Part shown: positions 2,411 through 64,000 of the stretch, piece by piece
Layout: each line of letters begins with the position of its first letter
Numbering within the stretch: position 1 is the first letter of the stretch
Source: Candidatus Uhrbacteria bacterium
GTDB taxonomy: Bacteria; Patescibacteriota; Patescibacteriia; UBA9934; GWF2-40-263
Reading direction: 5' to 3'
NCBI GenBank assembly: GCA_016188425.1
Contig: JACPHX010000020.1
Location: 1,821 to 65,820 of the forward strand
Length of the DNA stretch: 64,000 nt
Notes under the pieces: generated by a model
The model's input: only the letters and a program-made list of their open reading frames with translations
What the model was told of the DNA's origin: nothing
The model's database searches: none
Made by a program: the position numbers and the translations under genes

Positions 2411-2812
2411 ATGGCCGTTTCGCTGCTTATAGATGGGCACGACATTCGGTGGATATTTTTTGCGATCATCGCGGAGGGGGGAGGAGGGAGGGGGGAGGTG
2501 AAGGGGATGCAACAGGTTTTTGCAGAGCCGGAGGGATTCTTGGGCGCGTTGGATGGTTTTTTGAATAGACAGGGGGAAAAGCTTCCGGACGTCGATGCCC
2601 TTTATGCCGTCCCTGGCCCCGGATCATTTACCGCTTGCCGCACATCGATCGCCCTTGTGAATGGCATCGCCTGGACCCGGTCGCTTCCGCTCTTTTCGAT
2701 TCCTCCGCTGTCGGCGCCGACGGTCGAGGATGTGCGCGATGCGCTCGCGCAGGCAAAACCCGTCTTGCTTCCGCTGGCTCCTGCCTACGACCGTCCACCG
2801 ACCATAACCTGA
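2411..2812 (+). CDS. tsaB: TsaB/YeaZ-like (inactive Kae1/TsaD homologue), short form
   Basis: Motif VPGPGSFTACRTSIALVNGIAW matches TsaB GPGSFTG(L/V)R(I)G; ATG at 2411 immediately after the upstream stop. Confidence 0.5.
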   Translation: MAVSLLIDGHDIRWIFFAIIAEGGGGRGEVKGMQQVFAEPEGFLGALDGFLNRQGEKLPDVDALYAVPGPGSFTACRTSIALVNGIAWTRSLPLFSIPPLSAPTVEDVRDALAQAKPVLLPLAPAYDRPPTIT

Positions 2813-4355: not shown

Positions 4356-4459
4356 GTATCGAGGAGTTAGGAGCAGTAGAAAACAAGCAAGGAAACAATG
4401 ATCTGGGATCGTCCGTCCGCCCCCCCCTAGCGCCCAACGCCTAGCGTCTCCCCCCCTCT

Positions 4460-5536
4460 ATGACCGAAACCATCTCAATCCATCTGGTCACCTGGAACAG
4501 CGCCCGCCATTTGCCGGCGCTTTTGGAGTCGATCCAAGCGCAGAGCGAGCCGCGTTTCTCGGTGCGCGTGGTGGATAATGCTTCCGAAGACCGGTCGCGA
4601 GAGATTGTGCGGGAGCAATTTCCCAGCGCGCTCCTCATGCGCAATGCGCGTAACAACGGGTTTGCGAGCGCGCATAACCAAGCGATTCGCTACGCGCTCG
4701 ACCATTGGGAGGGAGAAGACCTGTCTGACAAGTATATAGTGCTCATCAATCCGGACATCATCCTGAAACCGACATGCCTAGAGGAATTGCTTCGGGTGGC
4801 GCGGGCGCATCCGTCCGCCTCTTGCGTCGGCGCGAAACTGCTTCGGACATTCACGGAAAGCGGGAGCGATGAGGTGTTGTCGGAAAAGACTCCGTCGGAC
4901 ATCATCGATTCATTGGGACTGCATCCGCATCGGAACCGTTCGATCACGGAGTGGCGCGCGGGCGAGCTTGATCGAGATCCCCATCCCGCCGGGCGGATGC
5001 AAGGCACAGAGGGGGAAGAGGAAGAGGTGTTCGGCATCTCCGGCGCGCTCGCGCTGTATCGGGCCAGCGCCCTGGCGGATGCCTCGGCAGAAGGGGCCGT
5101 ATTCGATCCGTCGTTTTTTTCTTACAAGGAGGATGTGGATTTGGCGTGGCGGCTGCGATGGCTGGGATACGAGGCTTGGTGTGCGCCAAGAGCCGCGGCC
5201 TTCCACGAACGAGGGATGGCCGCGCCGTCTCTGCATGGCTTTTGGGCGCGCGTCTCGCATCGACGACGCCAGCCGGACCGACGAAAATATTATTCGAACC
5301 GCAACCACTGGCTCTTGCTCATCAAGAACGAATCCGCAGGCAGCCTGTTCCTGTCTGCTCCTTGGATCCTCTTGCACGAAGCGAAGCGCGTGCTGTACAC
5401 CCTGTGCATAGAACCGTTGGGGCTTGGAGCATTCGCGTCCGCTTTTCTTGGATTTCCGCGTGCTTGGAAAGCCAGGCGCTTGCTGATATCCCGCCGACGC
5501 GTGAGTCCCAAGGATATGCGGAAATGGTTTGTATGA
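4460..5536 (+). CDS. family-2 glycosyltransferase (rhamnosyl/galactosyl-transferase-like)
   Basis: N-terminal ISIHLVTWNSARHLPALLESIQAQS...VRVVDNASED is a typical GT2 start; ATG at 4460. Confidence 0.75.
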   Translation: MTETISIHLVTWNSARHLPALLESIQAQSEPRFSVRVVDNASEDRSREIVREQFPSALLMRNARNNGFASAHNQAIRYALDHWEGEDLSDKYIVLINPDIILKPTCLEELLRVARAHPSASCVGAKLLRTFTESGSDEVLSEKTPSDIIDSLGLHPHRNRSITEWRAGELDRDPHPAGRMQGTEGEEEEVFGISGALALYRASALADASAEGAVFDPSFFSYKEDVDLAWRLRWLGYEAWCAPRAAAFHERGMAAPSLHGFWARVSHRRRQPDRRKYYSNRNHWLLLIKNESAGSLFLSAPWILLHEAKRVLYTLCIEPLGLGAFASAFLGFPRAWKARRLLISRRRVSPKDMRKWFV

Positions 5537-6396
5537 TTTCCATCCTGATCGTCCACTACAATACGCCTGGTCTCCTGCGGCAAACATTGCGCGGGTTTGA
5601 GCGCTGTCCTCCGACGGTCCCATTTGAGTTGGTGGTGGTGGATAACAATCCCACGCAGCGGGTCGCGAGTTGGGTTGCGGCCGAATTTCCGCAGGTAAAA
5701 CTGGTTGTGTCAGAATACAATCGCGGGTTTGGCGGAGCCATGAACGTGGCGGCCGCCGCGGCCGCGGGCGATTATCTGTTTGTATTCAATCCCGACATCG
5801 CGATTTTTCCAGGCGTATTGGAAGGGCTCACTTCGTTTCTGGACGAGAACCCCGATGTGGGAGTGGTAGGCCCGCAACTGCGCAACGCGGATGGCACGGT
5901 GCAATATAGTTGTTACCGTTTTATGACCCCCGCGATCGTCCTGTACCGGCGCCTGCCTGGGGCCGCGCTGTTTGCAAAGGCTCGCAGCGTTGTTTCCTCC
6001 TATCTCATGGAGGATGCCGACCATTCCAAGGTGCAAGATGTTGATTATCTCCTGGGGGCCTCGTTGTTTATGCGTCGGACGCTGTTTCAAAAATTAGGCG
6101 GGTTCGACCCCAAGTTGTTCATGTATTTTGAGGACCAGGATTTTTGTCGCCGAACCTGGATGTCGGGGTCGAGGGTTGTGTATTATCCCCTGGTCCACCT
6201 GGTTCACTACCATCGACGGGAAACCGCCCACGGAAACGTGCTGCGACAGCTTTTTCAGCGTCTGACGCGTATTCAAATGCGCAGCGCGTGGTATTATTTC
6301 CGTAAATATAAAGGACAGGAGAATCCAAGGAGGGGGGGAGGGTGGAGGGGGGAGGGGGGAGACAGGGAGCGGGGAGCGAATGGACCTGCAAGCTGA
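5533..6396 (+). CDS. family-2 glycosyltransferase; C-terminal tail encoded by a poly-G repeat
   Basis: MISILIVHYNTPGLLRQTL...LVVVDNNPT is a GT2 start. The ATG at 5533 overlaps the upstream stop as ATGA (alternative ATG at 5524). The tail RRGGGWRGEGGDRERGANGPAS is read from the G-rich arm of the repeat at 6338. Confidence 0.7.
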   Translation: MISILIVHYNTPGLLRQTLRGFERCPPTVPFELVVVDNNPTQRVASWVAAEFPQVKLVVSEYNRGFGGAMNVAAAAAAGDYLFVFNPDIAIFPGVLEGLTSFLDENPDVGVVGPQLRNADGTVQYSCYRFMTPAIVLYRRLPGAALFAKARSVVSSYLMEDADHSKVQDVDYLLGASLFMRRTLFQKLGGFDPKLFMYFEDQDFCRRTWMSGSRVVYYPLVHLVHYHRRETAHGNVLRQLFQRLTRIQMRSAWYYFRKYKGQENPRRGGGWRGEGGDRERGANGPAS

Positions 6397-6478
6397 TTTT
6401 GTACCCTTGGTTGTTTCCATTCCTTCCTACCCCTTTTCCCAATCCTCCTCCCTCCCCCCTCCACTCCTCCCACCTCTC
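6338..6478. repeat. poly-G arm (6338..6363) and poly-C arm (6421..6478) forming an inverted homopurine/homopyrimidine element
   Basis: ggagggggggagggtggaggggggaggggggag ... cctcctccctcccccctccactcctcccacctctc. The same architecture occurs in frame inside secA at 62559..62654. Confidence 0.5.
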
Positions 6479-6479: not shown

Positions 6480-8498
6480 ATGCCTCAACCCCCAACCTTA
6501 CTAACTGCAACCCCCCTCCCACCAAAGAGGAAATCACCTCACCGTGCCGGTCGGCTGATCCTTCTTGGGTTGTTGGTGCTCATTGTGTGGATAAGCACCA
6601 CCCTTGTGTTTGCTTTGCTCGCGGCCCGAGCGGCATTTGCGGGGCGGGATGCGTTATTGGCGGCCCGTGGGGAGATTGAATCCATGCAATTTTCCGCCGC
6701 CGCGGATTCATTGAAGCGTTCCGGAGATCAGTTCCGCGTGGCGCAATCTCGACTTGCCTTTATCACCCCTTGGGATCATCTGCCTTATACCGGCGATCAG
6801 CTCATGGCCATCAAGGGTTTAGTGGAGGGGGGCGTACAGGTGGCAGATGTCCTTTCTTCCCTTGTGGGTTTGGGTGAGGATCTCTTGGCTCTTTCTGACC
6901 TGTCCAAGGAACGACTTCTCGAGCTTCAGCAAGCCGGGGAAATTCCGCATGCCTACGCCACCCTTTCTCTGGATACAAAAGCGGCCTTGTTGCGCCGTCT
7001 CGAAGCCGCTTCGCCCGAATTGTTGCTTCTTTCAACAAAGCTTGATCTTATCGGTCGGTCACTGCAACAACAGGTATCCAACCAAGCGGTCGCCACGTTG
7101 CTTGCGGACGTGCTTCGTCCTGTCCGTGCCCAAGTAGGAGAACTCTCGGAGCGTTTGCGTGGCCTGTCTGCCTTTGCCCGTGTCGTCCCGTCGTTGCTTG
7201 GAACAGACAAAGATTCTCATCTGATGGTCCTTTTTCTTAACAACGATGAGCTGCGGCCTGGGGGTGGATTTTTGGGGACATTCGCCCAGGCCACTTTGCG
7301 GGTCGGGGAGTTGAAAGAGATTGCGGCGCACGACAGCTACTCGCTTGATACGCCTGCCGGCGGCGCTGGGGCAGTGATCCTTCCTCCGCCGGTCCCGTTG
7401 GAGCGGTACAACAATACCCACGGTTGGTTCCTTCGCGATGCGAATTGGTCGCCCGATTTTCCGACGTCCACCCAGCAAGTGCTGCGGCTGTATAAACATG
7501 AACGCGGCCAGCTTCCTCCAGAAGCCCAGGAGGAGTGGCCTTCGGAAGAACCGGATTTTGTTTTCGGCATGACGCCCGATGTCGCTTCCGCCTTGTTGAC
7601 GGCCACCGGGCCGCTTATGATCCGTGACACACGGATCACCTCGGAGAATATTTCGGAGGTGCTCCAGTACGAATCGCAAGTCGGGTTTGCCGATCGCGGG
7701 ATCCCGTTTGAACAACGCAAAACCATCCTGCTGGAATTGGTGCCCAAGATGCTTGAGCGATTGCAGGCGCTGCCGCTTTCCTCCGTTCGGAACGTGCTGT
7801 CGCTGTTGCAGGATCAAGCCGACCATCGGCAGCTGATGGCCTGGGCGCGCCAGCCATCCATTCAAGACACGTTTACGAGGCTTGGATGGGCGGGGGAGAT
7901 GAGCGCGCAAGGGGACGTGCAGATGGTGGTCGACGCCAATTTGGCGAGCTTAAAAACCGACCCTGTAGTTTTGCGGGCGATCCGGTATGAGATCAGCAAG
8001 AACACCGATGGAAAATATGTCGGGCGCACAACCATTCGATATGCGCACACGGGTTCTTTCGATTATAAAACAACCCGTTACCGCACCTACGTGCAGCTCT
8101 ATCTTCCCTCTGGCTCCGAATTGATCCGCGCCACCGGTTTGTTGCGAGACGATAGGATCAACGATCCGGACGGACATCCGGGAGAGGTTGATGTCAAAAC
8201 GGATGGCGGGTTCACCGCGTTGGGCGGCTTCACGTCGATTGAGCCGAGCCAGACCCGCGAGATCACCTTCGATTATTTGCTTGCTCCGTCGGTCGTGTCT
8301 CTGATTGATGCGGGAACCTATCGTCTGAACGTCATAAAGCAGCTGGGCGCGGACGATCGTGCATTGACGCTCCATCTCGATTTTGGTAAGACGCTCACAC
8401 GCGCATCTCCTTCGGAGGAACGGGACCATTGGGGCGACACCATCTACGATTGGTCGGGAGTTCTGGAAGGAAAGAGCGCGTTTGAGGTTGGACTGTAA
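6480..8498 (+). CDS. DUF4012-like membrane-anchored protein (polysaccharide-locus associated)
   Basis: ATG at 6480 (internal M47 of ORF 6342..8498), then TM helix LILLGLLVLIVWISTTLVFALL. Motif LFLNNDELRPGGGFLGTF resembles the conserved RPxGGF(I/L)G core of DUF4012. The DUF number is assigned from memory. Confidence 0.55.
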   Translation: MPQPPTLLTATPLPPKRKSPHRAGRLILLGLLVLIVWISTTLVFALLAARAAFAGRDALLAARGEIESMQFSAAADSLKRSGDQFRVAQSRLAFITPWDHLPYTGDQLMAIKGLVEGGVQVADVLSSLVGLGEDLLALSDLSKERLLELQQAGEIPHAYATLSLDTKAALLRRLEAASPELLLLSTKLDLIGRSLQQQVSNQAVATLLADVLRPVRAQVGELSERLRGLSAFARVVPSLLGTDKDSHLMVLFLNNDELRPGGGFLGTFAQATLRVGELKEIAAHDSYSLDTPAGGAGAVILPPPVPLERYNNTHGWFLRDANWSPDFPTSTQQVLRLYKHERGQLPPEAQEEWPSEEPDFVFGMTPDVASALLTATGPLMIRDTRITSENISEVLQYESQVGFADRGIPFEQRKTILLELVPKMLERLQALPLSSVRNVLSLLQDQADHRQLMAWARQPSIQDTFTRLGWAGEMSAQGDVQMVVDANLASLKTDPVVLRAIRYEISKNTDGKYVGRTTIRYAHTGSFDYKTTRYRTYVQLYLPSGSELIRATGLLRDDRINDPDGHPGEVDVKTDGGFTALGGFTSIEPSQTREITFDYLLAPSVVSLIDAGTYRLNVIKQLGADDRALTLHLDFGKTLTRASPSEERDHWGDTIYDWSGVLEGKSAFEVGL

Positions 8499-13006: not shown

Positions 13007-13007
13007 T

Positions 13008-19151: not shown

Positions 19152-19596
19152 GGGGTGAACGGATTCGAACCTGTGGCCTCGTAGGACAGGCGTTCAGGGT
19201 CTGGCAGCCCATCGCTGGTATTGCATCGCGGACAAGTGCGAGGAGCACGAGTACGCGCGAGTGGGTCCGCTGTGAAACGCAACTACATCGTCGGGCGTTT
19301 CGCATGGTTCCTCGGACCGGTCCACCCACCCTGGTGTGATCCGGTTTTGTTGCCACGTTCCGTCCCCTTCCGCAGAGAGGGGAGACAGGCTCTGGGCGCA
19401 CGTCGTCACTTCTTCCTGAAGTGTGTGCGCGACAGAACGGACATTGTCTTCGACGAGGACGATGACCGGGCCCCGGAATCAGGGCAGGATGTCGTACCAG
19501 CACCATCGGAGTCGGGAACCGGTGCGAGCGTCATGCTCGCATCGATCGTTCCCGCTCCTGGCCACCTGGCCGCGGGCCCAACTGGGCCCTTTTTTA
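19152..19596 (+). ncRNA. candidate structured RNA (tmRNA-like 5' motif) ending at an intrinsic terminator
   Basis: No credible ORF on either strand between 18920 and 19600. GGGGTGAACGGATTCGAACC at 19152 resembles the tmRNA 5' TLD (GGGGCUGAUUCUGGAUUCGAC). A GGCCTCGTAGGACAGGC segment parallels E. coli GGCCUCGUAAAAAGCC. Terminator GGGCCC-AACT-GGGCCC-TTTTTT at 19574..19596. No matching 3' acceptor (TCACCCC-A-CCA) was found, so the identity is unresolved. Confidence 0.3.
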
Positions 19597-19600
19597 ATTG

Positions 19601-19726
19601 GGGCGCAAGGGGCGCAGGGGGTCCAAGGGGCGCAAGGGGGAAGGCAAGGAACACGGAGTCGGAAGCCCATGCGCGCTTGCGCGCCTATGTTTTTGCGCCT
19701 CTTGGACCCCCTGCGCCCCTTGCGCC
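19601..19726. repeat. CAAGGG-unit structured element, copy B1
   Basis: Left arm of four 9-bp units (CGCAAGGGG CGCAGGGGG TCCAAGGGG CGCAAGGGG), core ...GAACACGGAGTCGGAAGCCCATGCGCGCTTGCGCGCCTATGTT..., right arm the inverted complement (CCCCTTGCGCC). Near-identical to copies at 30671 and 52513. Confidence 0.7.
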
Positions 19727-19750
19727 TGCTCGTGTTACCATGTCCCCACT

Positions 19751-20311
19751 ATGTGGCAATTCTCCGTCGATGGAAAACCAGTCCTCTGCCGGGCGCGGGT
19801 CAGTGCGCGGGCGCGGCATGTGCGCGGGATGGTGCATGCGGACGGGCGGGTGGAGCTTGTGCTTCCAAGGCGGTTTCGGTTGAGCGAGGACGATCTACAC
19901 CGCCTCTTCGCGCAGCATCGGCCGTGGTTTGAGCAGGCCATTCGCCGCTTGCGTCGTGTGCCCAGACAGGCACTGACGCATGGGGAAGAAAGCATGCGGG
20001 TGGTCCGTCAGAGAACGGAGACGATGGTACGCGCGTATCTGGCGGAGCTGGCGCACCGCGTCCGTTTTTCGGTGCATGAGATACGGGTGCGTCCGTACAA
20101 AACCAGGTGGGGATGTTGCCGTTTGGGCGGTCGGCTGTCGTTCCATTATAAATTGTGTCTCCTGCCCCGGCGGTTGGCACAGTATGTCGTCATCCATGAG
20201 GTGTGTCATCTGTTCCATCCCAACCATTCTCCGCGGTTTTGGGCGGAGGTGCGAAAACTGTGTCCAGACGCAGAAGAATGCCGCCGGGCGTTGAGGACGT
20301 ACGTGCCGTAA
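19751..20311 (+). CDS. YgjP/DUF45-like zinc metallopeptidase
   Basis: YVVIHEVCHLFHPNHSPRFW (HExxH...H.xRFW). ATG at 19751 is internal M52 of ORF 19598..20311; the upstream part of that ORF is repeat sequence. Confidence 0.6.
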   Translation: MWQFSVDGKPVLCRARVSARARHVRGMVHADGRVELVLPRRFRLSEDDLHRLFAQHRPWFEQAIRRLRRVPRQALTHGEESMRVVRQRTETMVRAYLAELAHRVRFSVHEIRVRPYKTRWGCCRLGGRLSFHYKLCLLPRRLAQYVVIHEVCHLFHPNHSPRFWAEVRKLCPDAEECRRALRTYVP

Positions 20312-30171: not shown

Positions 30172-30672
30172 GTGTTCTGGATCGAAATCCTCGTCTTCAT
30201 CCTTTTGTGCTCCTTTGCCTACGCCGCCCACCGGGGCGCGCCGTGGGTGCCTACCTGGCGGAGGGATTTTTCAAGGATCAAGCGGCTTCTGGATCTCAAA
30301 GAAGGGGAGACGTTCTTTGAATTGGGCTGCGGCGATGGTCGGGTTGTTTGTGCACTCTCGGACGTCTCGGGAGCAAAGGGGATAGGAGTCGAGCTTTCTT
30401 TCGTCCAATACCTCGTCGCCCGCCTGCGCGCCTGGCGCCGCCCGCTTGTATGCATCGAGCTCAAGGACGCGTTCAATGTCGACCTCTCGGAGGTGGATGC
30501 CGTGTACTTGTTCCTCATGTCCGAAACCTACGGCAAGCTCTGTGAGAAGTTTGAAAAAGAATTGAAGCCAGGATGTCGGGTCGTGACGTATGTCTGGCCG
30601 ATCCCGGGGTGGGTGGCGACGGAGGTAGACAGGAAAGGAGGGAGGCCGCCGGTGTATTTGTATAGGCGATGA
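30172..30672 (+). CDS. N-terminally TM-anchored class I SAM-dependent methyltransferase (paralogue of 17818..18375)
   Basis: MFWIEILVFILLCSFAYAA then LDLKEGETFFELGCGDGRVV. Confidence 0.6.
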   Translation: MFWIEILVFILLCSFAYAAHRGAPWVPTWRRDFSRIKRLLDLKEGETFFELGCGDGRVVCALSDVSGAKGIGVELSFVQYLVARLRAWRRPLVCIELKDAFNVDLSEVDAVYLFLMSETYGKLCEKFEKELKPGCRVVTYVWPIPGWVATEVDRKGGRPPVYLYRR

Positions 30673-30797
30673 AGGGCGCAAAGGGCGCAGGAGGTCCAAG
30701 GGGCGCAGGAACATAGGCGCGCAAGCGCGGATGTGCTTCTTCGTTCCGTGTTCCCGTCTCTCCCCTTGCGCCCCTTGGACCCCTTGCGCCCCTTGCG
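30671..30797. repeat. CAAGGG-unit structured element, copy B2 (inverted relative to B1)
   Basis: Its reverse complement reads GGCGCAAGGGGCGCAAGGGGTCCAAGGGGCGCAAGGGG...GAACACGGA...GCGCGCTTGCGCGCCTATGTTCCTGCGCCCCTTGGACC.... It begins at the methyltransferase stop codon. Confidence 0.7.
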
Positions 30798-30875
30798 CCT
30801 CTGTCCAAAATAAAACACCCCCCGACCAGTTTTCACTAGTCGGGAGGTACGCACCGTGTGTGTTGATTGACCTTG

Positions 30876-43287: not shown

Positions 43288-45207
43288 ATGGCAAAAATTC
43301 TTGGGATCGATTTGGGAACGACGAATTCTTGTGTCGCGATCATTGAAGGAGGGAAACCAAAAGTGCTTGATAACAGCGAAGGGTATCGCACCACACCTTC
43401 GATCATTGCGACGTCCAAGACAGGCGAGCGTTTGGTTGGGCTTCCTGCCAAACGCCAGTCGGTGACGAATCCGACGAACACCTTGTACTCTATCAAGCGC
43501 CTGATAGGCCGCCGCTTTACCGATGCCGAAGTGCAGCGTGATTTGGCGGTGTTCCCGTTTAAGATCCAGAAGCGCGGTGAAGGCGTCGAAGTACTCATGG
43601 GAGGAAAGGCATACACGCCGGAGGAAATTTCTGCGATGGTTTTGCAAAAGATCAAGAGTGATGCGGAAGCGCGTTTGGGCGAGTCGGTGACGGAAGCGGT
43701 CATCACCGTCCCTGCGTATTTCGACGACGCGCAGCGCCAGGCCACGAAGGTTGCAGGCGAGATCGCTGGCCTCACTGTGAAGCGCATCATCAACGAGCCG
43801 ACGGCGGCGGCGCTGGCGTATGGGTTTGACCAGAAGAAAGGCCAGCAAGTGCTCGTCTACGATTTGGGGGGCGGGACGTTCGACGTCTCTGTCCTCGATT
43901 TGTCCGCGGATACCGTTGAGGTGAAAGCCACCAACGGCGACACGCATTTGGGCGGCGACGATTTCGACCGCGTCGTCATCGACTGGATCGTCACCGAGTT
44001 CAAGAAAGCGGAAGGAATCGATCTTTCGAAAGATCCGCTCGCGATGCAGCGCATCAAAGACGCCGCCGAAAAGGCGAAGATCGAACTCTCCACCGCCGCC
44101 CAGACCGAAATCAACCAGCCCTTCATCACTTCCGATGCCAACGGCCCGAAGCACCTCGTCGTCCCTTTCACGCGTTCCCAGCTCGAATCATTGTGCCTTC
44201 CCCTCGCGGAGCGGACGATGGAGCCCGTGCGCCAAGCGCTCGCGGACGCGAAGATGGAGAAAAACGCCATCCACGAAATCATCATGGTCGGCGGCATGAC
44301 GCGCATGCCTCTCGTGCAGAAGAAGGTTGAGGAATTCTTCGGAAAGAAACCCAACCTATCGATCAATCCCGACGAAGTCGTTGCCCTGGGCGCCGCGGTA
44401 CAAGCCGGCGTCCTCCAAGGAGAGGTGAAAGACGTCCTCCTTTTGGATGTCACGCCTTTGTCGCTGGGCATCGAAACGTTGGGCGGAGTGATGACCGCGC
44501 TCATCGAACGCAACACGACGATTCCGACTTCCAAAGGCCAGACTTTCTCGACCGCCGCGGACAACCAGAATACGGTGGAGATCCACGTCCTCCAAGGCGA
44601 GCGGCCGATGGCCGCGGATAACAAGACTTTGGGACGCTTCGCGCTCTCGGGCATCCCCCCGGCTCCTCGCGGCGTTCCGCAAGTCGAGGTAAAATTCGAC
44701 ATCGACGCCAATGGGATCCTGAACGTCTCGGCCACCGACAAAGCATCGGGCCAGGCGCAGAGCATCCAGATCAAAGCGTCCACAGGTCTCTCCAAGGAAG
44801 ACATCGAGCGGATGAAAATGGAAGCGGAGCAACACGCGACGGAGGATACGAAGAAGCGTGAGCTTATCGAAGCACGCAACCTGGCGGAGCAGATGGTGTA
44901 CACCTCCGAGAAGATGCTCAAGGACAATGAGGCGAAGGTTTCGGCGGAAGATAAGAAGGCCGTGGAAGAGAAGATTGCCGCGATGCGCTCGGTCAAAGAT
45001 GCGGATGATCTGGACGCGATCAAGAAGGCGGGAGACGAGCTGACGGATATCGCGCAGAAGGTGGGGGGCAAGCTCTATCAATCGGGGCAGGCGCAAGGGG
45101 CGCAGGGGGCGTCCGGCGAAGCCGGATCCGGCTTCGCCGGACAAGGGGGAGGCGACGAACCGAAGACGGAGGGGGCACAGGATGCGAATTTTACGGAGAA
45201 GAAGTAA
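43288..45207 (+). CDS. dnaK: molecular chaperone DnaK (Hsp70); C-terminal tail contains a 28-bp palindrome copy
   Basis: [17 protein letters not shown]...[10 protein letters not shown]... full Hsp70. The tail ...[18 protein letters not shown] is read from the palindrome at 45113..45140. Confidence 0.95.
45113..45140. repeat. 28-bp palindrome family, copy in the dnaK tail (GAAGCC variant)
   Basis: CCGGCGAAGCCGGATCCGGCTTCGCCGG, in frame, encoding [10 protein letters not shown]. Confidence 0.7.
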
Positions 45208-45210: not shown

Positions 45211-45306
45211 CGGGGCGGTTAAGAGGGGTTAAGGGTGATTAGGGGCGGTTTTCGGACCGTCCAGAATAGTCCTCTTAACCCCACCTAACCCCCCTTAACC
45301 GCCCCT
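45211..45306. repeat. structured inverted element, GTTAAGGG-unit variant
   Basis: GGGGCGGTTAAGAGGGGTTAAGGGTGATTAGGGGCGG ... CCTCTTAACCCCACCTAACCCCCCTTAACCGCCCC. Confidence 0.6.
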
Positions 45307-45320
45307 TTGTTCCATTTCAT

Positions 45321-45558: not shown

Positions 45559-46632
45559 ATGGCAGGAAAAGATTATTATCACATTCTTGGGGTGGGGAAG
45601 CAGGCGAGCGCGGAGGAGATCAAGAAGGCGTTTCGCACGCTGGCGCACCAATTCCATCCGGACAAACCAGGCGGCAATGCGGATAAGTTCAAGGAGATAA
45701 ACGCGGCGTACCAAGTGCTGTCGGATCCGGACAAGCGCGCGAAGTACGACCAGTTTGGCCCTGGCTTCGAGCAGATGAACGGTGGTGATGCCGGCGGGTT
45801 TGGCGGTTTTCAAAATGGGTTCAATGGGATGGAGTTTGATCTGGGGGATTTAGGATCGATGTTTGGGCAAGCGTTTGGGTTTGGAGGGGGGAGGAGGGGG
45901 GAGGGAGGAGGGAGGAAGCAGGGGAGACCTATGGAGGTGGCGCTTTCACTTACGTTCTCGGAAGCCATCTTTGGAGTGGAAAAAGAAATCATTTTACAGA
46001 CGTCGGTGGCGTGTGAACGCTGTGGGGGCGTCGGGGCCGAACCTGGGACGAAAAAGAAGACGTGTACCGATTGCGGCGGCACGGGGACGCGGGTGCGGGC
46101 GCAACGGACGATTTTGGGGACGATACAGATGCAGACGACGTGCGACACCTGTCAAGGGGAGGGCGAGATCATCGAGACGCCCTGCGCGTCTTGCCGTGGG
46201 GAAGGGATGAAACGGGGGAAGAAACAACTCTCCATCGAGATACCGGCGGGGGTGGAAGACGGGGCAGTCCTTCGATTGCGAGGGCAGGGGGAGGCGATCA
46301 AGGGCGGGGAGGCGGGAGACGTGTATGTGCGTCTGCGCGTGACGCCGGACGCACGCTTTGAACGTGACGGGGACAAAATTTATTCTGGCCTCTCCATCGG
46401 GTTCACCCAGGCAGCGCTTGGAGACAAGGTGATCGTGGAGACGGTCGACGGCGACGCGGAGCTGACGATCCCGGCCGGGATCCAATCGGGAACGGAACTT
46501 CGGTTGAAAGGAAAAGGCGTGCCGCAGGGTCGGGGACGTGGCGACCACATGGTGGTCGTGACCGTTGTGACGCCGACGAAACTTTCTCGTGAGCAAAAAG
46601 AATTGTTTGAAACATTGAACTTGCGGGATTAA
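45559..46632 (+). CDS. dnaJ: co-chaperone DnaJ
   Basis: J-domain DYYHILGV...HPDKP, a G/F-rich region, and four CxxCxGxG zinc-finger repeats. Confidence 0.9.
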   Translation: MAGKDYYHILGVGKQASAEEIKKAFRTLAHQFHPDKPGGNADKFKEINAAYQVLSDPDKRAKYDQFGPGFEQMNGGDAGGFGGFQNGFNGMEFDLGDLGSMFGQAFGFGGGRRGEGGGRKQGRPMEVALSLTFSEAIFGVEKEIILQTSVACERCGGVGAEPGTKKKTCTDCGGTGTRVRAQRTILGTIQMQTTCDTCQGEGEIIETPCASCRGEGMKRGKKQLSIEIPAGVEDGAVLRLRGQGEAIKGGEAGDVYVRLRVTPDARFERDGDKIYSGLSIGFTQAALGDKVIVETVDGDAELTIPAGIQSGTELRLKGKGVPQGRGRGDHMVVVTVVTPTKLSREQKELFETLNLRD

Positions 46633-47235: not shown

Positions 47236-49604
<2,369 letters not shown>

Positions 49605-59053: not shown

Positions 59054-60463
59054 ATGTTTACCTCGGTAAAACACGTCCATCTGATCGGCGCGGGAGGAAT
59101 TGGCGTCTCGGCGCTTGGGAAGTGGTTTTTGCGCCGCGGGGTGCTTGTCAGCGGGCAGGACCGCGTGGCGTCGGCCGTGCTTGATGATTTGGTAAAACTA
59201 GGAGGGGTCATGGCGGTCGCCGACGACTCGGGTCTGGAGAAGGATGTCGACTTGGTCATTTATTCCCCCGCCGTCACCCCGGAGCATCCGACACGTAAGG
59301 AAGCGGACGCGCGTGGCGTCCGATCGCTTTCTTATCCAGAGGCGCTCGGGGAATTAACGCGCGGCCATAAGACGATTGCGGTTACAGGGACCAACGGCAA
59401 GAGTACGACGACGTCGATGATCGGATTGATGCTCGAGGCGGCCGGGTTGGATCCGACTGTCGTCGTCGGCTCGCTCGTCCCCGGGTTTGTCGATGGGAAT
59501 TTGCGGAGCGGAAATGGCTCATGGTTTGTTGTCGAGGCCTGCGAGTACCGCGAGCACATGCTCCTCCAACACCCAACGATCGGGGTTATCACTAACATTG
59601 AGGAAGATCATTTGGATTATTACCGTGACATCAACCACATCCACGAAGCGATGCAAAAATTCGCAAACCAGTCGGAGGTACTCGTGTGGAATGCGGATGA
59701 TGAGATGTCGGGGAGGTTGGAGGGAGGAGGTTGGAGGGAGGAGGTTGGAGGGAGGAGGTTGGAGGGAGGAGGGGGGAGGATTTCATGCGGAATAGAGACG
59801 GGTGAGATACGGGCGGTTGACCGTCGCGTTGGCGCTGGTGAACAATCATTCGTCTGTCTGGACGGCACGGATCGTCTTGGTGAGATCCATCTGCAGATCC
59901 CCGGAGTCTACAATGTTCAAAACGCGCTCGCGGCCATTGCGGCGGCGAGCAAGGCAGGAGTGCCGTTTGAGGTGTGCCAGAAGGTGCTGGCGGACTATCG
60001 CGGCATCTGGCGCCGGTTCGAACGGGTCGGGACCTTTAAAGGAGCGCCGATCATCTCAGACTACGGTCATCATCCGACGGCCGTGAAAGGGGTCGTCGAT
60101 GCAGCGCGCGAGTTTTTTCCAGGACGGCGGATCGTGTTGTGCTTCCAGCCCCATCAGCATTCGCGGACGAAGGAGTTGCGTCCGCAATTCGCGGAAGCGC
60201 TGCGCGCCGCGGATATTGTCATCGTGCCAGAGATTTACAAGGTGGCAGGGCGTACCGAGAAGGAAGAACGTGAGATATCGAGCGTGGATCTGGTCGACGA
60301 CGTGCGTGCACTCGATGAGAACAAGAACATCCGCGTCGCCTCCGACCTCGCGCGCGCCGAGCGCATGCTCCGCGACCTCGTCACGGAGGGGGACGTCGTG
60401 ATTGCGCAAGGCGCGGGGGATATCGATACAGTCGCAAGGAATTTAGTAACTTCCTCCTTTTGA
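59054..60463 (+). CDS. murC: UDP-N-acetylmuramate--L-alanine ligase with an in-frame tandem-repeat insertion
   Basis: MFTSVKHVHLIGAGGIGVSALGKWF...VTGTNGKSTTTSMIG...; insertion MSGRLEGGGWREEVGGRRLEGGGGR. Confidence 0.9.
   Translation: MFTSVKHVHLIGAGGIGVSALGKWFLRRGVLVSGQDRVASAVLDDLVKLGGVMAVADDSGLEKDVDLVIYSPAVTPEHPTRKEADARGVRSLSYPEALGELTRGHKTIAVTGTNGKSTTTSMIGLMLEAAGLDPTVVVGSLVPGFVDGNLRSGNGSWFVVEACEYREHMLLQHPTIGVITNIEEDHLDYYRDINHIHEAMQKFANQSEVLVWNADDEMSGRLEGGGWREEVGGRRLEGGGGRISCGIETGEIRAVDRRVGAGEQSFVCLDGTDRLGEIHLQIPGVYNVQNALAAIAAASKAGVPFEVCQKVLADYRGIWRRFERVGTFKGAPIISDYGHHPTAVKGVVDAAREFFPGRRIVLCFQPHQHSRTKELRPQFAEALRAADIVIVPEIYKVAGRTEKEEREISSVDLVDDVRALDENKNIRVASDLARAERMLRDLVTEGDVVIAQGAGDIDTVARNLVTSSF
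59712..59785. repeat. 15-bp tandem repeat GGAGGTTGGAGGGAG x4 plus a partial unit, in frame in murC
   Basis: ggaggttggagggag repeated 4 times (59712..59771), followed by gaggggggagga. Confidence 0.75.
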
Positions 60464-60555: not shown

Positions 60556-61539
60556 ATGAATGACATTACATCCTCGCTTCTTTCTAGGTTCGGGACGCGA
60601 TTGAAACAAAACGAGCTTCTCTCCAAACACACCAACTTTCGCATCGGCGGTCCTGCTCGTTGGTACCTTGAAGCCAAGACGGAGGCGGATGTGATGGATG
60701 CTTGGAAGATCGCGCACGAGAATAGTGTGCCTGTATTTGTGTTGGGTGGAGGATCGAATACGCTCGCCCCCGACGAAGGATATCCTGGTCTCGTGATCCA
60801 GATCGCGATGCGTGATATCTCGATCGACGGCCAAGACGTCGTCGCGGACGCTGGCGCCTTGTCTGTTGCGGTCGCTCGGCAAACTGGGAAGGCGGGGCTT
60901 TCTGGGATGGAGTGGGCGATTTCGCTTCCGGGGACGATCGGGGGAGCGGTGCGCGGGAATGCGGGATGCTTTGGAGGGGAGACGAAGGATCGTCTCGTGT
61001 CCGCACGGGTGCTTCGTGAGGGCAAGGTGGTTGAGATGAGCAAGAAGGATCTCGATTTCCACTACCGCCACAGTTCCATCAAAGGAACGAACGACATAGT
61101 ATTGTCAGCGAAGTTTCATTTGGAAAAAGGGGATGCGGATGAGCTGCAAAAAAAGATGGAGGAGATTTTGGGGAAGAGGAAGGCTTCGCAGCCGATGTCG
61201 GCTGGGTCGGCGGGGTGTATGTTTAAGAATTGTGAGCTGGCAGCTGGCAGCTCGAAGCTGGCAGCGATGATCGAAAAAAAAATACCGTTACCAAACAACT
61301 GCCCGCTGCCCGCTGCCCGCTGCCAGCTTCCCGCCGGCTGGCTCATCGACCAAGCAGGCCTCAAGGGCCTCCGCATCGGCGATGCCCAGATAAGCGACGT
61401 GCATGGGAATTTCGTCGTAAACCTCGGAAAAGCCACGGCAGAAGATGTGATGGCCGTCGTCCACAAGGCCAAGGAGACCGTGAAGGAGAAGTTTGGTATA
61501 GAATTGGAGGAGGAAGTGCAGTTAATTGCCCAAGGGTGA
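60556..61539 (+). CDS. murB: UDP-N-acetylenolpyruvoylglucosamine reductase with an in-frame ~30-codon palindromic insertion
   Basis: FRIGGPARWYLEAKTEADVMDAWKIAHENSVPVFVLGGGSNTL... (FAD-binding) ...SAGWLIDQAGLKGLRIGDAQISDVH. Insertion CELAAGSSKLAAMIEKKIPLPNNCPLPAARCQLP. Confidence 0.9.
   Translation: MNDITSSLLSRFGTRLKQNELLSKHTNFRIGGPARWYLEAKTEADVMDAWKIAHENSVPVFVLGGGSNTLAPDEGYPGLVIQIAMRDISIDGQDVVADAGALSVAVARQTGKAGLSGMEWAISLPGTIGGAVRGNAGCFGGETKDRLVSARVLREGKVVEMSKKDLDFHYRHSSIKGTNDIVLSAKFHLEKGDADELQKKMEEILGKRKASQPMSAGSAGCMFKNCELAAGSSKLAAMIEKKIPLPNNCPLPAARCQLPAGWLIDQAGLKGLRIGDAQISDVHGNFVVNLGKATAEDVMAVVHKAKETVKEKFGIELEEEVQLIAQG
61233..61322. repeat. GCTGGCAGC-armed palindromic element inside murB
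   Basis: GAGCTGGCAGCTGGCAGCTCGAAGCTGGCAGC ... GCTGCCCGCTGCCCGCTGCCAGCTTC; 90 bp, in frame. Confidence 0.7.
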
Positions 61540-61620
61540 CAAGGGTCGCAAGTGTTTCAAGGGCACACGGAAACGATTACCCTTGAAACCCTTGCGACCC
61601 TTGCCGCTCTTGAAACCCTT
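61529..61620. repeat. CAAGGG-unit structured element, variant; the murB stop codon lies in the first unit
   Basis: CCAAGGGTGACAAGGGTCGCAAGTGTTTCAAGGGC ... CCCTTGAAACCCTTGCGACCCTTGCCGCTCTTGAAACCC. Confidence 0.6.
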
Positions 61621-62049: not shown

Positions 62050-64000
62050 ATGTCGATTTTGAATGCCATTTTTGGCGATCCCAACAAGAAAGTTCTCAAA
62101 AAGATGGAGAAAGATGTCGCGCAGATCAATGCGTTGGAAGCGTCGGTCCAGGGGCTTTCGGATGAACAATTGAAGGGGAAGACGGTGGAATTCCGGGAGC
62201 GTCTCGCCAAAGGGGAGGCGTTGGATTCGTTGTTGCCCGAGGCATTCGCCACGGTCCGCGAGGCGGCGAAACGAACGCTCTCGCAACGGCATTTCGACGT
62301 GCAGCTCATGGGCGGGCTCGCGCTTTATCATGGCAGTATCGCCGAGATGCGCACGGGGGAAGGAAAGACATTGACCGCGACCACTGCTTTGTACGCGCGG
62401 GCGCTTGAAGGGAAAGGAGCACACCTCGTGACTGTCAACGATTACCTCGCGCGCCGCGATGCGGTGTGGATGGGACAGATCTTCCATGCGCTGGGGATGA
62501 CCATTGGGTGTATCCAGCATGCGGGCGGGTTTAGGTATGATCCGGAGTTTGTGTCGAAAGAGGAGGGGGGAGGGGGAAGGGGGGAGGGTGGAGAACAGGG
62601 GGGGCAAAACGCAGATGGCAGAACGGTCTCCGCCACCTCCCACCTCCCACCTCCTATCGCTTCCTTCAAGGTGGATCAGGAATATTTGCGGCCGGTGGCG
62701 CGGGTGGAGGCGTATAGCGCGGATATCACCTATGGCACGAACAATGAGTTCGGGTTCGACTACTTGCGTGACAACATGGCCGGCCGTCTCAAAGACCAAG
62801 TCATGCGCGGGTTGCATTACGCGATCGTCGACGAGGTCGACTCCATTTTGATCGACGAAGCGCGCACGCCGCTCATCATCTCGGCCCCATCGGCCGCGGT
62901 GAACGAGATGTATGTCCGTATCTCCCCGATCATCCGCGGCCTCATTGAAAAGGAGGACTTCCATGTCGATGAGAAACTGCATGCAGCGACGTTCACCGAG
63001 CAGGGCATCACGAAAGTGGAGCAAGCGCTTGGCCTTGCGAACCTTTATGACGCCGGGCACAACGTCCACTACTACGCGGATGTAACGTTGCGTGCGTACG
63101 CGTTGTATCGACGCGACGTGCAATACGTCGTTCGCGAAGGCGAGGTCGTTATTGTCGACGAGTTCACGGGACGCCTTATGCCAGGACGTCGGTTCTCGGA
63201 AGGCATTCATCAGGCCATCGAAGCCAAGGAAGGAGTGCCGATCCAGAAGGAAAGTCTCACCCTGGCGACGATTACGTTCCAGAATTATTTCCGTATCTAC
63301 AGACATCTTGGGGGGATGACGGGAACCGCCGCGACCGAAGCGGAGGAGTTTTCCAAGATTTATAATCTCGAGGTCACGCAGATCCCGACGCATCGAGCGA
63401 ATGCGCGCAAGGATCAGACGGATCGCGTCTACAAAAATGCAAAGGGAAAATTCGATGCGGTCGTCGCGGAAGTGAAACGCCTCCATGAGGCGGGCGAGCC
63501 GGTGCTGGTCGGTACCGTCTCCATCGAGAAGAACGAATTGCTCGGCGCGCTTCTCGCGCAGGCGGGGGTGCCGCATGAGATTTTGAATGCGAAGAATCAT
63601 GAACGCGAGGCAGAGATCATCGCGCAAGCAGGACGCCCAGGCGCGGTTACGATTGCGACGAACATGGCGGGGCGAGGTGTGGACATCATGCTTGGTGGCA
63701 ACCCACCTGATCCGACGAATTTTGAGAAGGTCAAAGAGCTGGGCGGGCTGTGCGTCATCGGCACGGAGCGCCACGAAAGCCGTCGCATCGACAACCAGTT
63801 GCGTGGACGCTCTGGTCGCCAAGGAGACCCAGGCGTCACCCAGTTTTATCTTTCCCTGGAAGACGACCTGATGCGCATCTTCGGCTCCGACCGCACGAAG
63901 TCCATGATGGACCGACTTGGGGTTCCGGATGACGTGCCGATCGAGAACCGCATGGTCACAGGCGCCATCGAGCGCGCGCAGAAGCGTGTGGAGGCACATC
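62050..64000 (+). CDS. secA: preprotein translocase ATPase SecA, 5' partial (runs off the window end) with an in-frame poly-G/poly-C insertion
   Basis: [19 protein letters not shown]...[20 protein letters not shown]...[20 protein letters not shown]...[11 protein letters not shown].... No stop before 64000; the long minus ORF 61522..63999 is its antisense shadow. Confidence 0.9.
62559..62654. repeat. poly-G / poly-C inverted element in frame in secA
   Basis: gaggaggggggagggggaaggggggagggtggag...ccgccacctcccacctcccacctcc, encoding [35 protein letters not shown]. Confidence 0.55.

Follow-up and report, generated by a model that had tools for sequence, protein, structure and literature searches.

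The G-rich/C-rich segment at 62559-62654 of the window, the 64-kb stretch of Candidatus Uhrbacteria DNA analysed here, lies in frame within secA and is probably a genuine, translated copy of a dispersed repeat family, which reached the gene by copying and was tolerated there. The source genome is a MAG, a small CPR genome. Translation of the frame beginning at 62050 agreed with the first-pass annotation in that the segment forms part of the secA reading frame, which was unbroken through the element and had conserved SecA sequence on both sides. The host gene and the parts of the element are as follows:

62050..64000, + strand: secA, the host gene; N-terminal 650 codons, continuing past the window end
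62559..62593, + strand: G-rich arm of the secA element, (GGAGGGG) x4.6, 12 encoded residues
62594..62629, + strand: spacer ("loop") of the secA element, 11 encoded residues
62630..62654, + strand: C-rich arm of the secA element, perfect (CCACCTC) x3.1 by TRF, encoding SATSHLPPP

The 650 SecA residues of the window were 100% identical to a 982-aa NCBI entry, preprotein translocase subunit SecA [Candidatus Uhrbacteria bacterium], and comparison with SecA structures in the PDB gave a best E of 2.5e-212.

The element consists of a purine arm, a 36-nt spacer and a pyrimidine arm, all in the secA frame. A purine-only tract extends from about 62557 to 62598 and includes GGAGGGGGGAGGGGGAAGGGGGGAGGGTGGAG starting at 62562. 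TRF detected a period of 7 at 62562-62593 (4.6 copies, 88% matches, unit GGAGGGG). The C-rich arm has the sequence CCGCCACCTCCCACCTCCCACCTCC and contains a CCACCTC array of 3.1 copies with 100% matches (62633-62654), the reverse complement of which is (GAGGTGG)n, so that the second array is convergent with the G-rich arm. A mirror structure had been proposed at first, but the arrangement is an inverted (convergent) repeat, so the alternative structures to consider are hairpin/cruciform and G-quadruplex; none of the observations pointed to H-DNA. At 62565-62588 the coding strand matches the regular expression G3+N1-7 x4, a canonical G4 motif, and the same arm contains several GGAGG motifs. The two arms were loosely complementary (23/28 positions, 2 gaps), and the element folded no better than shuffled sequences (RNA -53.2 kcal/mol, z -1.3; DNA z -1.7). 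Because the arms pair poorly and fold like shuffles, a stable hairpin is not claimed for the secA copy, and the term hairpin is applied to it chiefly because of its likeness to the GT2 copy described below. No target-site duplication was present around the element, the flanks being GTGTCGAAA and TATCGCTTC. In the whole 64-kb window, 11 G- or C-rich homopurine/homopyrimidine tracts were counted.

The element occupies secA codons 171-202 and is thus located mid-gene. In the homolog alignment, the loop that contains it was 82 residues long compared with 65 in the closest relatives, a net difference of 17 residues. The segment is indeed extra relative to other SecAs, as had been noted, but a clean insertion is not what was found: since the element has 32 codons and the loop is only 17 residues longer, about 15 native residues were replaced. 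The corresponding loop measured 37-77 residues in Uhrbacteria SecAs, and B. subtilis SecA has 9 residues opposite 63 of the query. The first-pass annotation had proposed a comparison with a SecA multiple alignment and had placed the segment just before a conserved block; the site itself is not a conserved part of SecA. Alignment of 120 SecA homologs placed the insert in a hypervariable loop of NBD1 that is lineage-specific to Uhrbacteria and carries other small G/C hairpins in three relatives. The sequence of the element was absent from all SecA relatives compared, the best of which, at 68-70% identity, are too distant to show an empty site. Structure prediction of the loop, also suggested earlier, was carried out with AlphaFold. 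The pLDDT fell below 50 for SecA residues 172-200 only, flanked by confident NBD1 strands, and the element is predicted to form a disordered surface loop compatible with the fold. MAFFT alignments had hinted that part of the native loop survives between the two arms. This was rejected, as 751 of 2000 shuffles matched the SecA loop-to-native score, and similarity of the spacer to the native loop DNA of relatives was not significant. A native-loop remnant in MurB was rejected likewise (828 of 2000 shuffles scored as high).

A function for secA is decidedly unlikely, whether as an mRNA hairpin, G4 or internal Shine-Dalgarno-like GGAGG that tunes secA or pauses translation, or as an adaptive, CPR-specific flexible loop of the protein. 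The coding-strand G4 motif and the several GGAGG motifs would suit such a role, G-rich heptamers of the Xanthomonas/Nostoc type fold into G4 in vitro and are concentrated close to the ends of ORFs (PMC4692102), and additions recur at this loop among Uhrbacteria SecAs. However, the sequence is not common to any relative compared, the complementarity of the arms has not been kept and the fold is no better than that of shuffles, the peptide is of low complexity and predicted to be disordered, and similar elements in unrelated genes and spacers leave nothing specific to secA. Most likely the element is repeat DNA that is tolerated and does nothing for SecA, and the secA copy, taken alone, probably does not matter to SecA function.

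A related copy was found at 6329-6476. As described earlier, it supplies the C-terminal tail of a GT2 gene; it also makes up part of the spacer that follows. The two copies define family A, and its parts and the other arrays of this type are listed here:

6329..6378, + strand: G-rich arm of family A copy 2, coding for the last ~22 residues of GT2 (5533..6396)
6379..6443, + strand: loop of the GT2-tail copy, including the GT2 stop codon at 6394-6396
6444..6476, + strand: C-rich arm of the GT2-tail copy, lying in the spacer that precedes a DUF4012 gene (about 6570..8498)
2473..2498, + strand: solo (GGAGGGG)-type array, found by TRF
45883..45923, + strand: GGAGGGG/GGAGGAG array in the Gly-rich linker of DnaJ, from TRF and translation

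The G-arms of the secA and GT2 copies matched at 39 of 47 positions and had the 15-mer GGAGGGGGGAGGGGG in common, and the irregular units GGAGGGT and GAG(A)ACAGGG were present in both. The tail of GT2 encoded by the element is RRGGGWRGEGGDRERGANGPAS; in GT2 homologs a conserved KYKGxxNPR is followed by only 0-18 variable residues to the end. The peptide of the GT2-tail G-arm, GGGWRGEGGD, is read in the same frame as the secA G-arm, a likeness between only two copies of low complexity. The arms of the GT2-tail copy (6330-6361 and 6445-6476) were 84% complementary, and the RNA fold of this element reached -101.8 kcal/mol (z -4.3 vs shuffles); it is much better paired than the secA copy. GGAGGGG-type arrays occurred at five loci within the 64-kb window. 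No C-rich partner was found for the array at 2473..2498, and the DnaJ array is probably native Gly-rich coding sequence and no insert.

An assembly or polishing artefact had been named at the outset as the finding that would overturn the observation. Logan assemblies of two runs matched the window at 100% identity over 45113-49356 and 5061-6448, and one contig from a different run (L267) agreed at 100% of positions with the GT2 copy across its G-arm and loop. Four further elements were reproduced exactly in another Logan contig than the GT2 one; the family C hairpin of tgt was reproduced in contig L008. The repeat family is therefore supported as genuine sequence and is no assembler quirk. The secA copy itself is known from a single assembly, and the SecA of the window had no match in the assembly index, so the independent assemblies bear on the family and not on the secA copy. 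Short-read graph assemblers break at such palindromes, and the copy number of the heptamers might be mis-assembled. Even so, we consider it very unlikely that collapsed or chimeric low-complexity reads or poly-G read ends produced the secA copy: its frame is exact with conserved SecA sequence on either side, the tract is periodic (GGAGGGG) and no homopolymer, and independent MAGs have analogous hairpins at the corresponding loops.

The segment was initially seen as a curiosity of two copies, but no fewer than 17 tandem-repeat or hairpin loci were counted in the window. Among them are at least 12 inverted pairs with tandem-repeat arms of 7-10 nt, and the 5' arm was G-rich in 12 of 12. The remaining elements are listed below; those without a strand are given by position only:

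59712..59779, + strand: solo perfect (GGAGGTTGGAGGGA) x4.4 array in murC, in frame, from TRF and ortholog comparison
47892..47963, + strand: family C hairpin in tgt with (AGCTGGC)n arms and a 6-nt loop, in frame, 24 codons
61235..61334, + strand: family C hairpin in murB, in frame, arms ~90% identical to the tgt copy
19600..19726: family B hairpin with (GGGGCGCAA)n arms, intergenic, 5' of a YgjP-like gene
30672..30799: family B hairpin whose start falls on a methyltransferase stop codon
52514..52627: family B hairpin, 5 nt beyond the dnaB stop codon (dnaB on the minus strand)
61531..61620: family D hairpin of the murB-hpf spacer that overlaps the stop codon of murB; arms (CAAGGGTGA)n
47236..47331: family D hairpin, 5' of tgt
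45212..45307: hairpin with (GGGGTTAAG)n arms, 5 nt beyond the dnaK stop codon
25783..25934: hairpin with 10-mer arms, 8 nt beyond the stop codon of an exonuclease gene
4333..4449: hairpin with (AGGCGCT)n arms, overlapping the stop codon of ORF 2823..4355
45111..45142, + strand: perfect zero-loop palindrome GTCCGGCGAAGCCGGA|TCCGGCTTCGCCGGAC in the DnaK tail, in frame, 12 residues
49329..49358, + strand: DnaK-tail palindrome family in the MraY-like GT4 gene, in frame, 10 residues
51674..51707, - strand: DnaK-tail palindrome family in recR, in frame, 12 residues

Strong hairpins numbered 14 in the window vs 0, 0 and 0 in block shuffles, and five strong intragenic palindromes (TGT, MurB, DnaK, MraY-like, RecR) were found vs 0 in each of five synonymous-codon shuffles. 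Repeat periods of 7, 9, 10 and 14 nt coexist in the genome, with several unit families. Seven of the nine extragenic pairs begin between -22 and +8 nt from a stop codon or contain one. The three copies of family B (112-128 nt) all contain the variant unit GGGGTCCAA, and the copies of family C have CTGCCCGCYGCCCGCTGC in common. In both families the arms were conserved to approximately 90% from one locus to another, and changes in one arm were compensated in the other arm of the same copy; the loops were unrelated among copies, the arms alone being conserved. The palindrome of DnaK, MraY-like and RecR gives a conserved peptide in all three copies and has the same reading from either strand. Compared with three orthologs, murC has a net gain of 14 residues (3 x 14 nt) at its array, and further solo arrays begin at 17717 and 51454. 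The downstream frame was intact in 7/7 intragenic cases (SecA, TGT, MurB, MurC, DnaK, MraY-like and RecR), and the copies in secA, tgt, murB and murC are presumably translated. In other CPR genomes the TGT loop has unrelated hairpin inserts at the matching position.

Coding segments flanked by hairpins are bypassed or spliced in some systems, such as T4 gene 60 and the mitochondrial byp elements. It is scarcely credible, though, that the secA segment is removed before the mature protein is formed, be it as intron-like RNA, as an intein or by translational bypass. The seven intragenic elements are all in frame and stop-free, which would be needless if they were removed and would occur by chance with a frequency of about (1/3)^7, and an intein would have to be far longer than this segment. 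At gathering thresholds, Rfam families matched only two tRNAs in the window and nothing within the segment; with 32 low-complexity codons, an intein or self-splicing intron was rejected.

An origin in place was weighed against arrival from another locus and appears somewhat unlikely. It would require that the native purine-rich K-E-E codon run AAAGAGGAGG, in an unconstrained loop, slipped during replication into a heptamer array, that an intrastrand template switch wrote an approximate inverted copy downstream, and that the likeness to GT2 is convergent, the product of a genome-wide mutational bias. Being of low complexity, the G-arm resemblance could arise convergently. The junctions on the left are native purine-rich codons, AAA GAG GAG in SecA and CCA AGG AGG, coding for the conserved NPR, in GT2, and these fit growth in place from a GGAGG seed equally well. 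Solo arrays with no partner are present at 2473, 59712, 17717 and 51454. Slippage is active, because murC gained exactly three units (perfect 14-mer x4.4) and the secA C-arm is a perfect array (x3.1). The net gains in SecA, TGT and MurB are far below the element lengths, as for templated overwriting; the loops between family copies are unrelated; and neither a target-site duplication nor a transposase was found in the window. In contrast, irregular arm sequences recur at separate loci (GGGGTCCAA in family B, CTGCCCGCYGCCCGCTGC in family C, GGAGGGT together with GAG(A)ACAGGG in family A), whereas independent slippage from random seeds should yield a different unit at each locus. We infer that the secA segment was copied from another locus and did not grow on the spot.

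Candidates for a mobilising agent were sought in the same window. Pfam analysis of about 50 ORFs revealed no transposase for hairpin mobilisation; the only related hit was a DDE_3 fragment at 9717-10256, which is unconnected and has its own flanking repeats, unrelated to the elements of the 64-kb window. No Y1/RAYT domain was present among the Pfam-scanned ORFs, and the family B copies had no flanking direct repeats or target-site duplications. Against viral contigs, the DnaK-type palindrome gave 0 matches, the two-armed GGAGG pattern gave 9, and the family B arm gave 9 chance matches in ordinary coding sequence, with no phage link.

In the reading that we favor, each member of the family consists of two short convergent tandem arrays, (GGAGGGG)n at the 5' side and an approximate complement at the 3' side; the pair can fold into a hairpin or cruciform, and a G-quadruplex can arise from the G-rich arm. 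The genome is full of such pairs, of several families, most of them at or just beyond stop codons, and a minority survive inside genes where the protein tolerates the insert. Arrival from another locus may have involved recombination, or a template switch, at microhomology of the GGAGG type, with later slippage of the heptamers. In secA, ~15-20 native residues have been exchanged for 37 residues, rich in Gly/Glu/Arg and then in Ser/Pro, in a loop predicted to be disordered, and the complementarity of the arms is no longer maintained. Selection would act as a filter that keeps the frame, excludes stop codons and admits a benign peptide, and the translated segment would be neutral.

Dispersed tandem repeats of G-rich heptamers are known from Xanthomonas (GGGAATC) and Nostoc (GGGGAYT) (Rehm et al. 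2015, PMC4692102). These typically have at least four units with a G-tract, giving a G4 motif, and many arrays are paired convergently, with a G-rich plus strand followed by a G-rich minus strand; an overlap with ORFs is seen for 7-11% of the Xanthomonas repeats and for roughly one third of those of Nostoc (PMC4692102). The secA element has the same characters, a 7-nt unit with a run of at least three G, at least four G-tracts and a convergent second array, and the elements of the window are dispersed and multi-copy, the GT2 copy and 7/9 extragenic pairs lying near gene ends. The mid-gene secA copy lacks this last feature. Since the unit is GGAGGGG (GGAGGTG in the other arm) and neither GGGAATC nor GGGGAYT, we regard the element as the same kind in another sequence family and in a different phylum (CPR). 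Further differences are that several unit families and periods occur in one small genome and that copies lie in frame mid-gene in the essential secA, tgt, murB and murC, whereas intragenic repeats were under-represented in the earlier study and were not analysed as protein insertions (PMC4692102).

Rickettsia palindromic elements (RPEs) form several families of palindromic repeats of ~100-150 bp, found between genes and also in frame inside unrelated conserved genes, which they do not destroy, the inserts being predicted as compatible with the fold (Ogata et al. 2000, 2002, in the summary of PMC10969869). The in-frame palindromes in SecA, TGT, MurB, DnaK, MraY-like and RecR resemble RPEs in leaving the genes intact, and the SecA insert does so in lying at a predicted disordered, fold-compatible surface loop. 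RPEs are Rickettsia-specific and have a conserved peptide per family, whereas the arms here are tandem-repetitive and of low complexity, the loops are not conserved between copies and the secA copy replaced native residues. Sequence homology to RPEs would not be expected because of the CPR host and the low-complexity G/C sequence.

Other short repeats agree with the elements in part. MITEs and REP/BIME are likewise short, multi-copy, hairpin-capable inverted repeats, often at gene ends and sometimes fused in frame to ORFs. Unlike MITEs, the present elements have no target-site duplications, no conserved internal sequence and no matching transposase in the window; REPs are extragenic by definition, whereas the secA copy is intragenic, and no RAYT occurred in the window ORFs scanned. 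Tandem repeats of Borgs evolve rapidly and make intrinsically disordered regions (Schoelmerich et al. 2023, PMC9879509), and the murC array and the secA arms similarly keep the frame and add low-complexity disordered segments. The repeats in Borg ORFs, however, are direct only, with a unit divisible by three, whereas inverted pairs occur here and the units are 7 or 14 nt, so that only changes of three units keep the frame. PARCELs are palindromic coding repeats, encoding amphipathic repeats in surface proteins of Mollicutes and some eukaryotic microbes (PMC2996958). The palindrome of DnaK, MraY-like and RecR is similar in giving similar peptides in unrelated genes, and the elements differ in being Gly-rich linkers in housekeeping enzymes.

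The elements are of an already known kind, convergent G-rich heptamers and in-frame palindromes, and what stands out is their density in essential genes. In a literature search of partial coverage, no account of them in CPR/Patescibacteria came up. Should the reading hold, the genome behaves like Rickettsia with its RPEs, with hairpin repeats translated in at least seven genes per 64 kb; selfish or mutationally generated repeats would lie inside essential enzymes, and the class of convergent G-rich heptamers would be extended to a new phylum. It would also give a concrete source for many lineage-specific loop insertions of CPR proteins. CPR proteins call for caution when they are annotated or their structures predicted: a loop of low complexity may stem from repeat DNA and need not be a functional addition. 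In the clear in-frame cases, slippage by one 7-nt unit would frameshift an essential gene.

A bolder proposal, which we hold to be fairly unlikely, is that Uhrbacteria, and perhaps CPR, actively write G-first arms at gene ends and in tolerant loops by a transposase-independent process, the arms being propagated and the loops being local. Break repair or template switching seeded at microhomology would be candidate processes. Were this true, such writing would be a major source of loops and disordered segments in SecA, TGT, MurB, MurC, DnaK, RecR and MraY-like proteins of CPR. The strict G-arm-first orientation and the combination of conserved arms with variable loops offer testable clues to the origin of the repeats. 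In a scan of a genome collection, heptamer-armed G-first hairpins were present in many phyla among the matches listed.

The first-pass annotation had described an inverted G-rich/C-rich element lying in frame in secA; this observation was confirmed, and its interpretation was partly supported. From about 62557 to 62598 the sequence is a G-rich tract of purines only, with GGAGGGGGGAGGGGGAAGGGGGGAGGGTGGAG as its core from 62562, and Tandem Repeats Finder resolved this G-rich arm (G-arm) as 4.6 copies of the 7-nt repeat GGAGGGG with 88% matches. After a spacer of 36 nt, the C-rich arm (C-arm) CCGCCACCTCCCACCTCCCACCTCC at 62630-62654 forms a perfect array of 3.1 CCACCTC units by the same program. 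Translation showed that the element is read through in the secA frame, which begins at 62050. Only 11 G- or C-rich homopurine/homopyrimidine tracts of this sort were present in the 64 kb. Pairing between the two arms is loose, with 23 of 28 positions complementary and two gaps, and the region folded no better than dinucleotide shuffles (RNA, -53.2 kcal/mol, z -1.3; DNA, z -1.7). The arms may have drifted apart (GGAGGGG vs GGAGGTG), with slippage still homogenising each of them. By its sequence, the G-arm is a canonical G4 motif; 15 such motifs were found in the window vs roughly 6 in composition-matched shuffles, mostly within repeat arms.

The window SecA was identical to an NCBI Candidatus Uhrbacteria bacterium protein, the next-best SecA being 68-70% identical. 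B. subtilis SecA aligned to query residues 2-154 and 218-649, with 9 residues in place of the 63 of the query. Comparison of the insert position with 120 Uhrbacteria/Patescibacteria SecAs revealed a hypervariable site, at which a segment running from LGxxxG to ADITYG measures 37-77 residues (typically 59-65) vs 82 in the query. The relatives show a recognisable FxYDPxFKHE...HDKERD.TGSFRVHxDYLRPV pattern there, and in the query the middle of the segment is replaced by the element-encoded peptide. Since the 32-codon element gave a net gain of only 17 residues, about 15 native residues would have been lost or overwritten. In the AlphaFold model (66 homologs, mean pLDDT 78) the element-encoded stretch, residues 172-200, had pLDDT below 50 and was flanked on both sides by confidently modelled strands. 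This low pLDDT, together with the length variation, predicts that the segment is a disordered loop at the protein surface, in a hypervariable site. Taken by itself, the secA copy probably has no consequences, and we consider a dedicated function of the element at this site improbable.

The C-terminal tail of a GT2 gene had been attributed to a second copy, and this was borne out. In 60 GT2 homologs the conserved KYKGxxNPR motif is followed by 0-18 variable residues before the protein ends. The window GT2 tail starts directly after NPR, and the last ~22 residues of the protein are encoded by the G-arm of the element at 6329-6476, so the second copy does supply the tail. When the two G-arms were aligned, 39 of 47 positions matched; they have in common the 15-mer GGAGGGGGGAGGGGG as well as two irregular pieces, GGAGGGT and GAG(A)ACAGGG, and the reading frame is also shared, giving GGGWRGEGGD in GT2 and a 10-residue counterpart in SecA. 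The GT2-tail copy is a much better hairpin than the secA copy, its arms (6330-6361 and 6445-6476) being 84% complementary and its RNA fold reaching -101.8 kcal/mol (z -4.3).

An assembly or polishing artefact, named in the first-pass annotation as the alternative, did not hold at the level of the repeat family. Logan contig L267 (run SRR12113420) was 100% identical to 5061-6448, covering the whole GT2-tail G-arm and loop and ending where the complementary arm starts, and Logan contig L008, from a different run (SRR12113421), was 100% identical to 45113-49356, including four elements, among them the tgt hairpin. These matches, at the GT2-tail copy and four other elements, established that the repeat family is real sequence. 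The contig ends (45113 and 49356; 6448) fall exactly within palindromes or where the complementary arm begins, as expected from a de Bruijn graph assembler. In this organism, the elements fragment their host genes in short-read graph assemblies, and such inserts may be hidden in other data sets. At the secA copy, exact preservation of the frame argues against an artefact, which we regard as very improbable. The secA segment is real, in frame and related to at least one other locus.

A scan of the window for inverted pairs upheld a family with a second copy, and the secA and GT2 copies turned out not to stand alone: the window is rich in inverted repeats whose arms are short tandem repeats (families A-D, by tandem unit). 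With a stringent ungapped score, 14 hairpins were detected in the window vs 0, 0 and 0 in shuffles.

Tandem-armed repeats and zero-loop palindromes in the window
62559-62654: family A (GGAGGGG), pair, in secA
6329-6476: family A, pair, at the GT2 tail
2473: family A, solo array
45883: family A, solo array, DnaJ Gly-rich linker
59712: family A, solo array
19600-19726, 30672-30799 and 52514-52627: family B (GGGGCGCAA), hairpins of 112-128 nt, all intergenic, two abutting stop codons
47892-47963: family C (AGCTGGC), hairpin in tgt, in frame, 24 codons
61235: family C, hairpin in murB, in frame, about 33 codons
47236 and 61531: family D (CAAGGGTGA)
4333, 25783 and 45212: single examples of tandem-armed hairpins
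45111-45142: zero-loop palindrome (G)TCCGGCGGAGCCGGA/TCCGGCTCCGCCGGA(C), DnaK tail
49329-49358: zero-loop palindrome TCCGGCGGAGCCGGA/TCCGGCTCCGCCGGA, MraY-like GT4 gene
51674-51707: zero-loop palindrome TCCGGCGGAGCCGGA/TCCGGCTCCGCCGGA, recR, minus strand

In all 12 tandem-armed pairs the G-rich arm precedes the C-rich arm, 5' to 3' (two-sided binomial p ~5e-4), and this order is intrinsic to the elements, since both strands show it alike. The G-first rule is broken by hairpins that lack tandem arms (e.g. 50959-51118) and by the mini-hairpins of relatives. Seven of nine extragenic pairs start at -22 to +8 nt from a stop codon or include one, and a T-run follows only one of the extragenic pairs. 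The secA segment is one of many convergent tandem-repeat pairs, which lie mostly at gene ends. Other features of the window included a perfect 40-nt palindrome, CATACTGTGGCCAAGGGGCA/TGCCCCTTGGCCACAGTATG (49640-49679), 36 nt beyond the MraY-like stop codon, a palindrome with 23-bp arms (11755-11801) ahead of the HflX-like gene, and an AT-rich hairpin (12909-13009) between the HflX-like and Fic genes. The first 43 codons of ORF 19598..20311 are a family B hairpin, a YgjP-like domain matching its C-terminal half only; the overlapping ORF 19221..19883 crosses the same hairpin in a different frame.

Strong intragenic palindromes numbered five in 42 genes (47 kb) vs zero in each of five synonymous-codon shuffles; these five are the tgt and murB hairpins and the three copies of the zero-loop palindrome. 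All three copies of this perfect palindrome lie in genes and are read as the same kind of 10-residue peptide whichever the gene strand; it had no matches in viral contigs. In murC, a perfect (GGAGGTTGGAGGGA) x4.4 array at 59712-59779, without a C-rich partner, lengthens the protein by exactly 14 residues (3 x 14 nt) over three orthologs and appears to be a recent frame-keeping expansion. The units here are 7 or 14 nt, unlike the tandem repeats of Borgs, in which every unit within an ORF is a multiple of three (PMC9879509); slippage by a single unit would therefore throw an essential gene out of frame, and the changes that survive are only those of three units. The frame was kept in 7/7 intragenic cases (by chance, about (1/3)^7), which argues that the elements are translated; we regard their removal from mRNA or protein as extremely improbable. 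As in SecA, the net gain was smaller than the element, with 13-14 residues gained in TGT for the 24-codon hairpin and 5 in MurB for about 33 codons. The hairpin loops were also considered as remnants of native loops; the similarity was not significant.

Arms of families B and C are ~90% conserved across loci and their loops are unrelated. Between two family B copies, two arm positions differ and are mirrored in the partner arm (CAGGGGG/CCCCCTG vs CAAGTGG/CCACTTG). These conserved arms with unrelated loops, the lack of target-site duplications at the copies examined in the window and the lack of a matching transposase argue against classical transposition. Taken with left junctions in native purine-rich codons and net length changes that are small, they would be in keeping with spread by template switching or recombination seeded at microhomology, plus slippage. 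The chief rival, a purely local origin through slippage and an intrastrand template switch, accounts for the left junctions and the solo arrays but leaves the recurrence of the same irregular arm sequences at separate loci unexplained, and we consider it unlikely. That the secA element is translated, tolerated without SecA function and derived from another copy, taken jointly, seems the fairly probable reading. A 179-aa DDE_3 (IS630-like) transposase fragment on the minus strand (9717-10256) adjoins a 16-bp inverted repeat, ACTTGGCTTATCATCC/GGATGATAAGCCAAGT (9583-9696); it is unrelated to the tandem-armed hairpins.

The murC-murB-hpf-secA synteny is kept in three relatives. Three relatives with extra SecA-loop residues all encode them by small G/C hairpins, TCCCCCCTTGGRAAGGGGGGA in contigs L001 and L003 and CTCCCCCTCCCACACTGGGGGAGGGG in L004. 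Among the metagenome matches listed (L129-L248), TCCCCCCTTGGRAAGGGGGGA proved to be a repeat dispersed very widely, on contigs of 37% to 67% GC, and its consensus extends to ACCCCCCT..TCCCCCCTTGGRAAGGGGGGA..AGGGGGGT; in these matches it was sometimes tandem or present several times per contig, and often lay within long open frames, read SPLGKGG or SPLSKGG. In TGT, the loop between SLRWAxRCK and LFGIVQGG proved to be a hotspot: about 44 of 120 orthologs (P0121-P0240) had a minimal loop, in which the segment measures 24-28 residues, and the others carried unrelated low-complexity inserts in segments of up to 85. Two of these inserts had clearly folding DNA, both long hairpins of unrelated sequence (contigs L005, 3481-3620, and L006, 10481-10670). 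The murB-hpf spacer holds a tandem-armed hairpin both in the window (61531-61620, CAAGGGTGA) and in L003 (6495-6693, (AAAATCC)n arms), with unrelated units; position and architecture are kept, and sequence is not.

The nearest published parallel is the dispersed G-rich heptameric repeats of Xanthomonas and Nostoc (Rehm et al. 2015, PMC4692102), with 7-nt units containing G-tracts, four units preferred, G4 formed in vitro, 70-75 'always' convergent pairs per genome, ORF overlap for 7-11% of copies in Xanthomonas and about a third in Nostoc, and unknown function. The window elements resemble them in convergent pairing, G-tract heptamers and the G4 motif (PMC4692102). Inside genes, the secA element behaves like the Rickettsia palindromic elements (RPE), which PMC10969869 describes as in-frame, fold-compatible palindromes in unrelated conserved genes, and it would fall outside those sequence families. 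It is best classed as a convergent G-rich heptamer repeat pair that is RPE-like when inside genes. It differs from a MITE in having neither target-site duplications nor a cognate transposase in the window, and from a REP in being intragenic, again without a cognate transposase in the window. No description of such elements in CPR was found in the literature searched. More interesting than the secA copy is how densely translated palindromes occur in the essential genes of this CPR genome; the strict G-arm-first order is also of interest, as is the finding that unrelated hairpins recur in the same protein loops in different Uhrbacteria.

Viral scans returned nothing relevant. Scanning 185,579 species genomes with the pattern (GGAGGNN)2-N60-90-(CCTCCNNCCTCC) gave at least 120 stretches (L009-L128). 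The matches listed span Gemmatimonadota, Chloroflexota, Clostridia, Cytophagales (Dyadobacter/Spirosoma), Planctomycetota, Acidobacteriota and Nostoc, indicating that the architecture is widespread and not special to this lineage; most of them were obvious heptamer-tandem-armed hairpins, with several per genome in some. GGAGG, which the GGAGGNN units contain, is the Shine-Dalgarno core, and the anti-SD sequence is matched by CCACCTCC, the unit of the secA C-arm.
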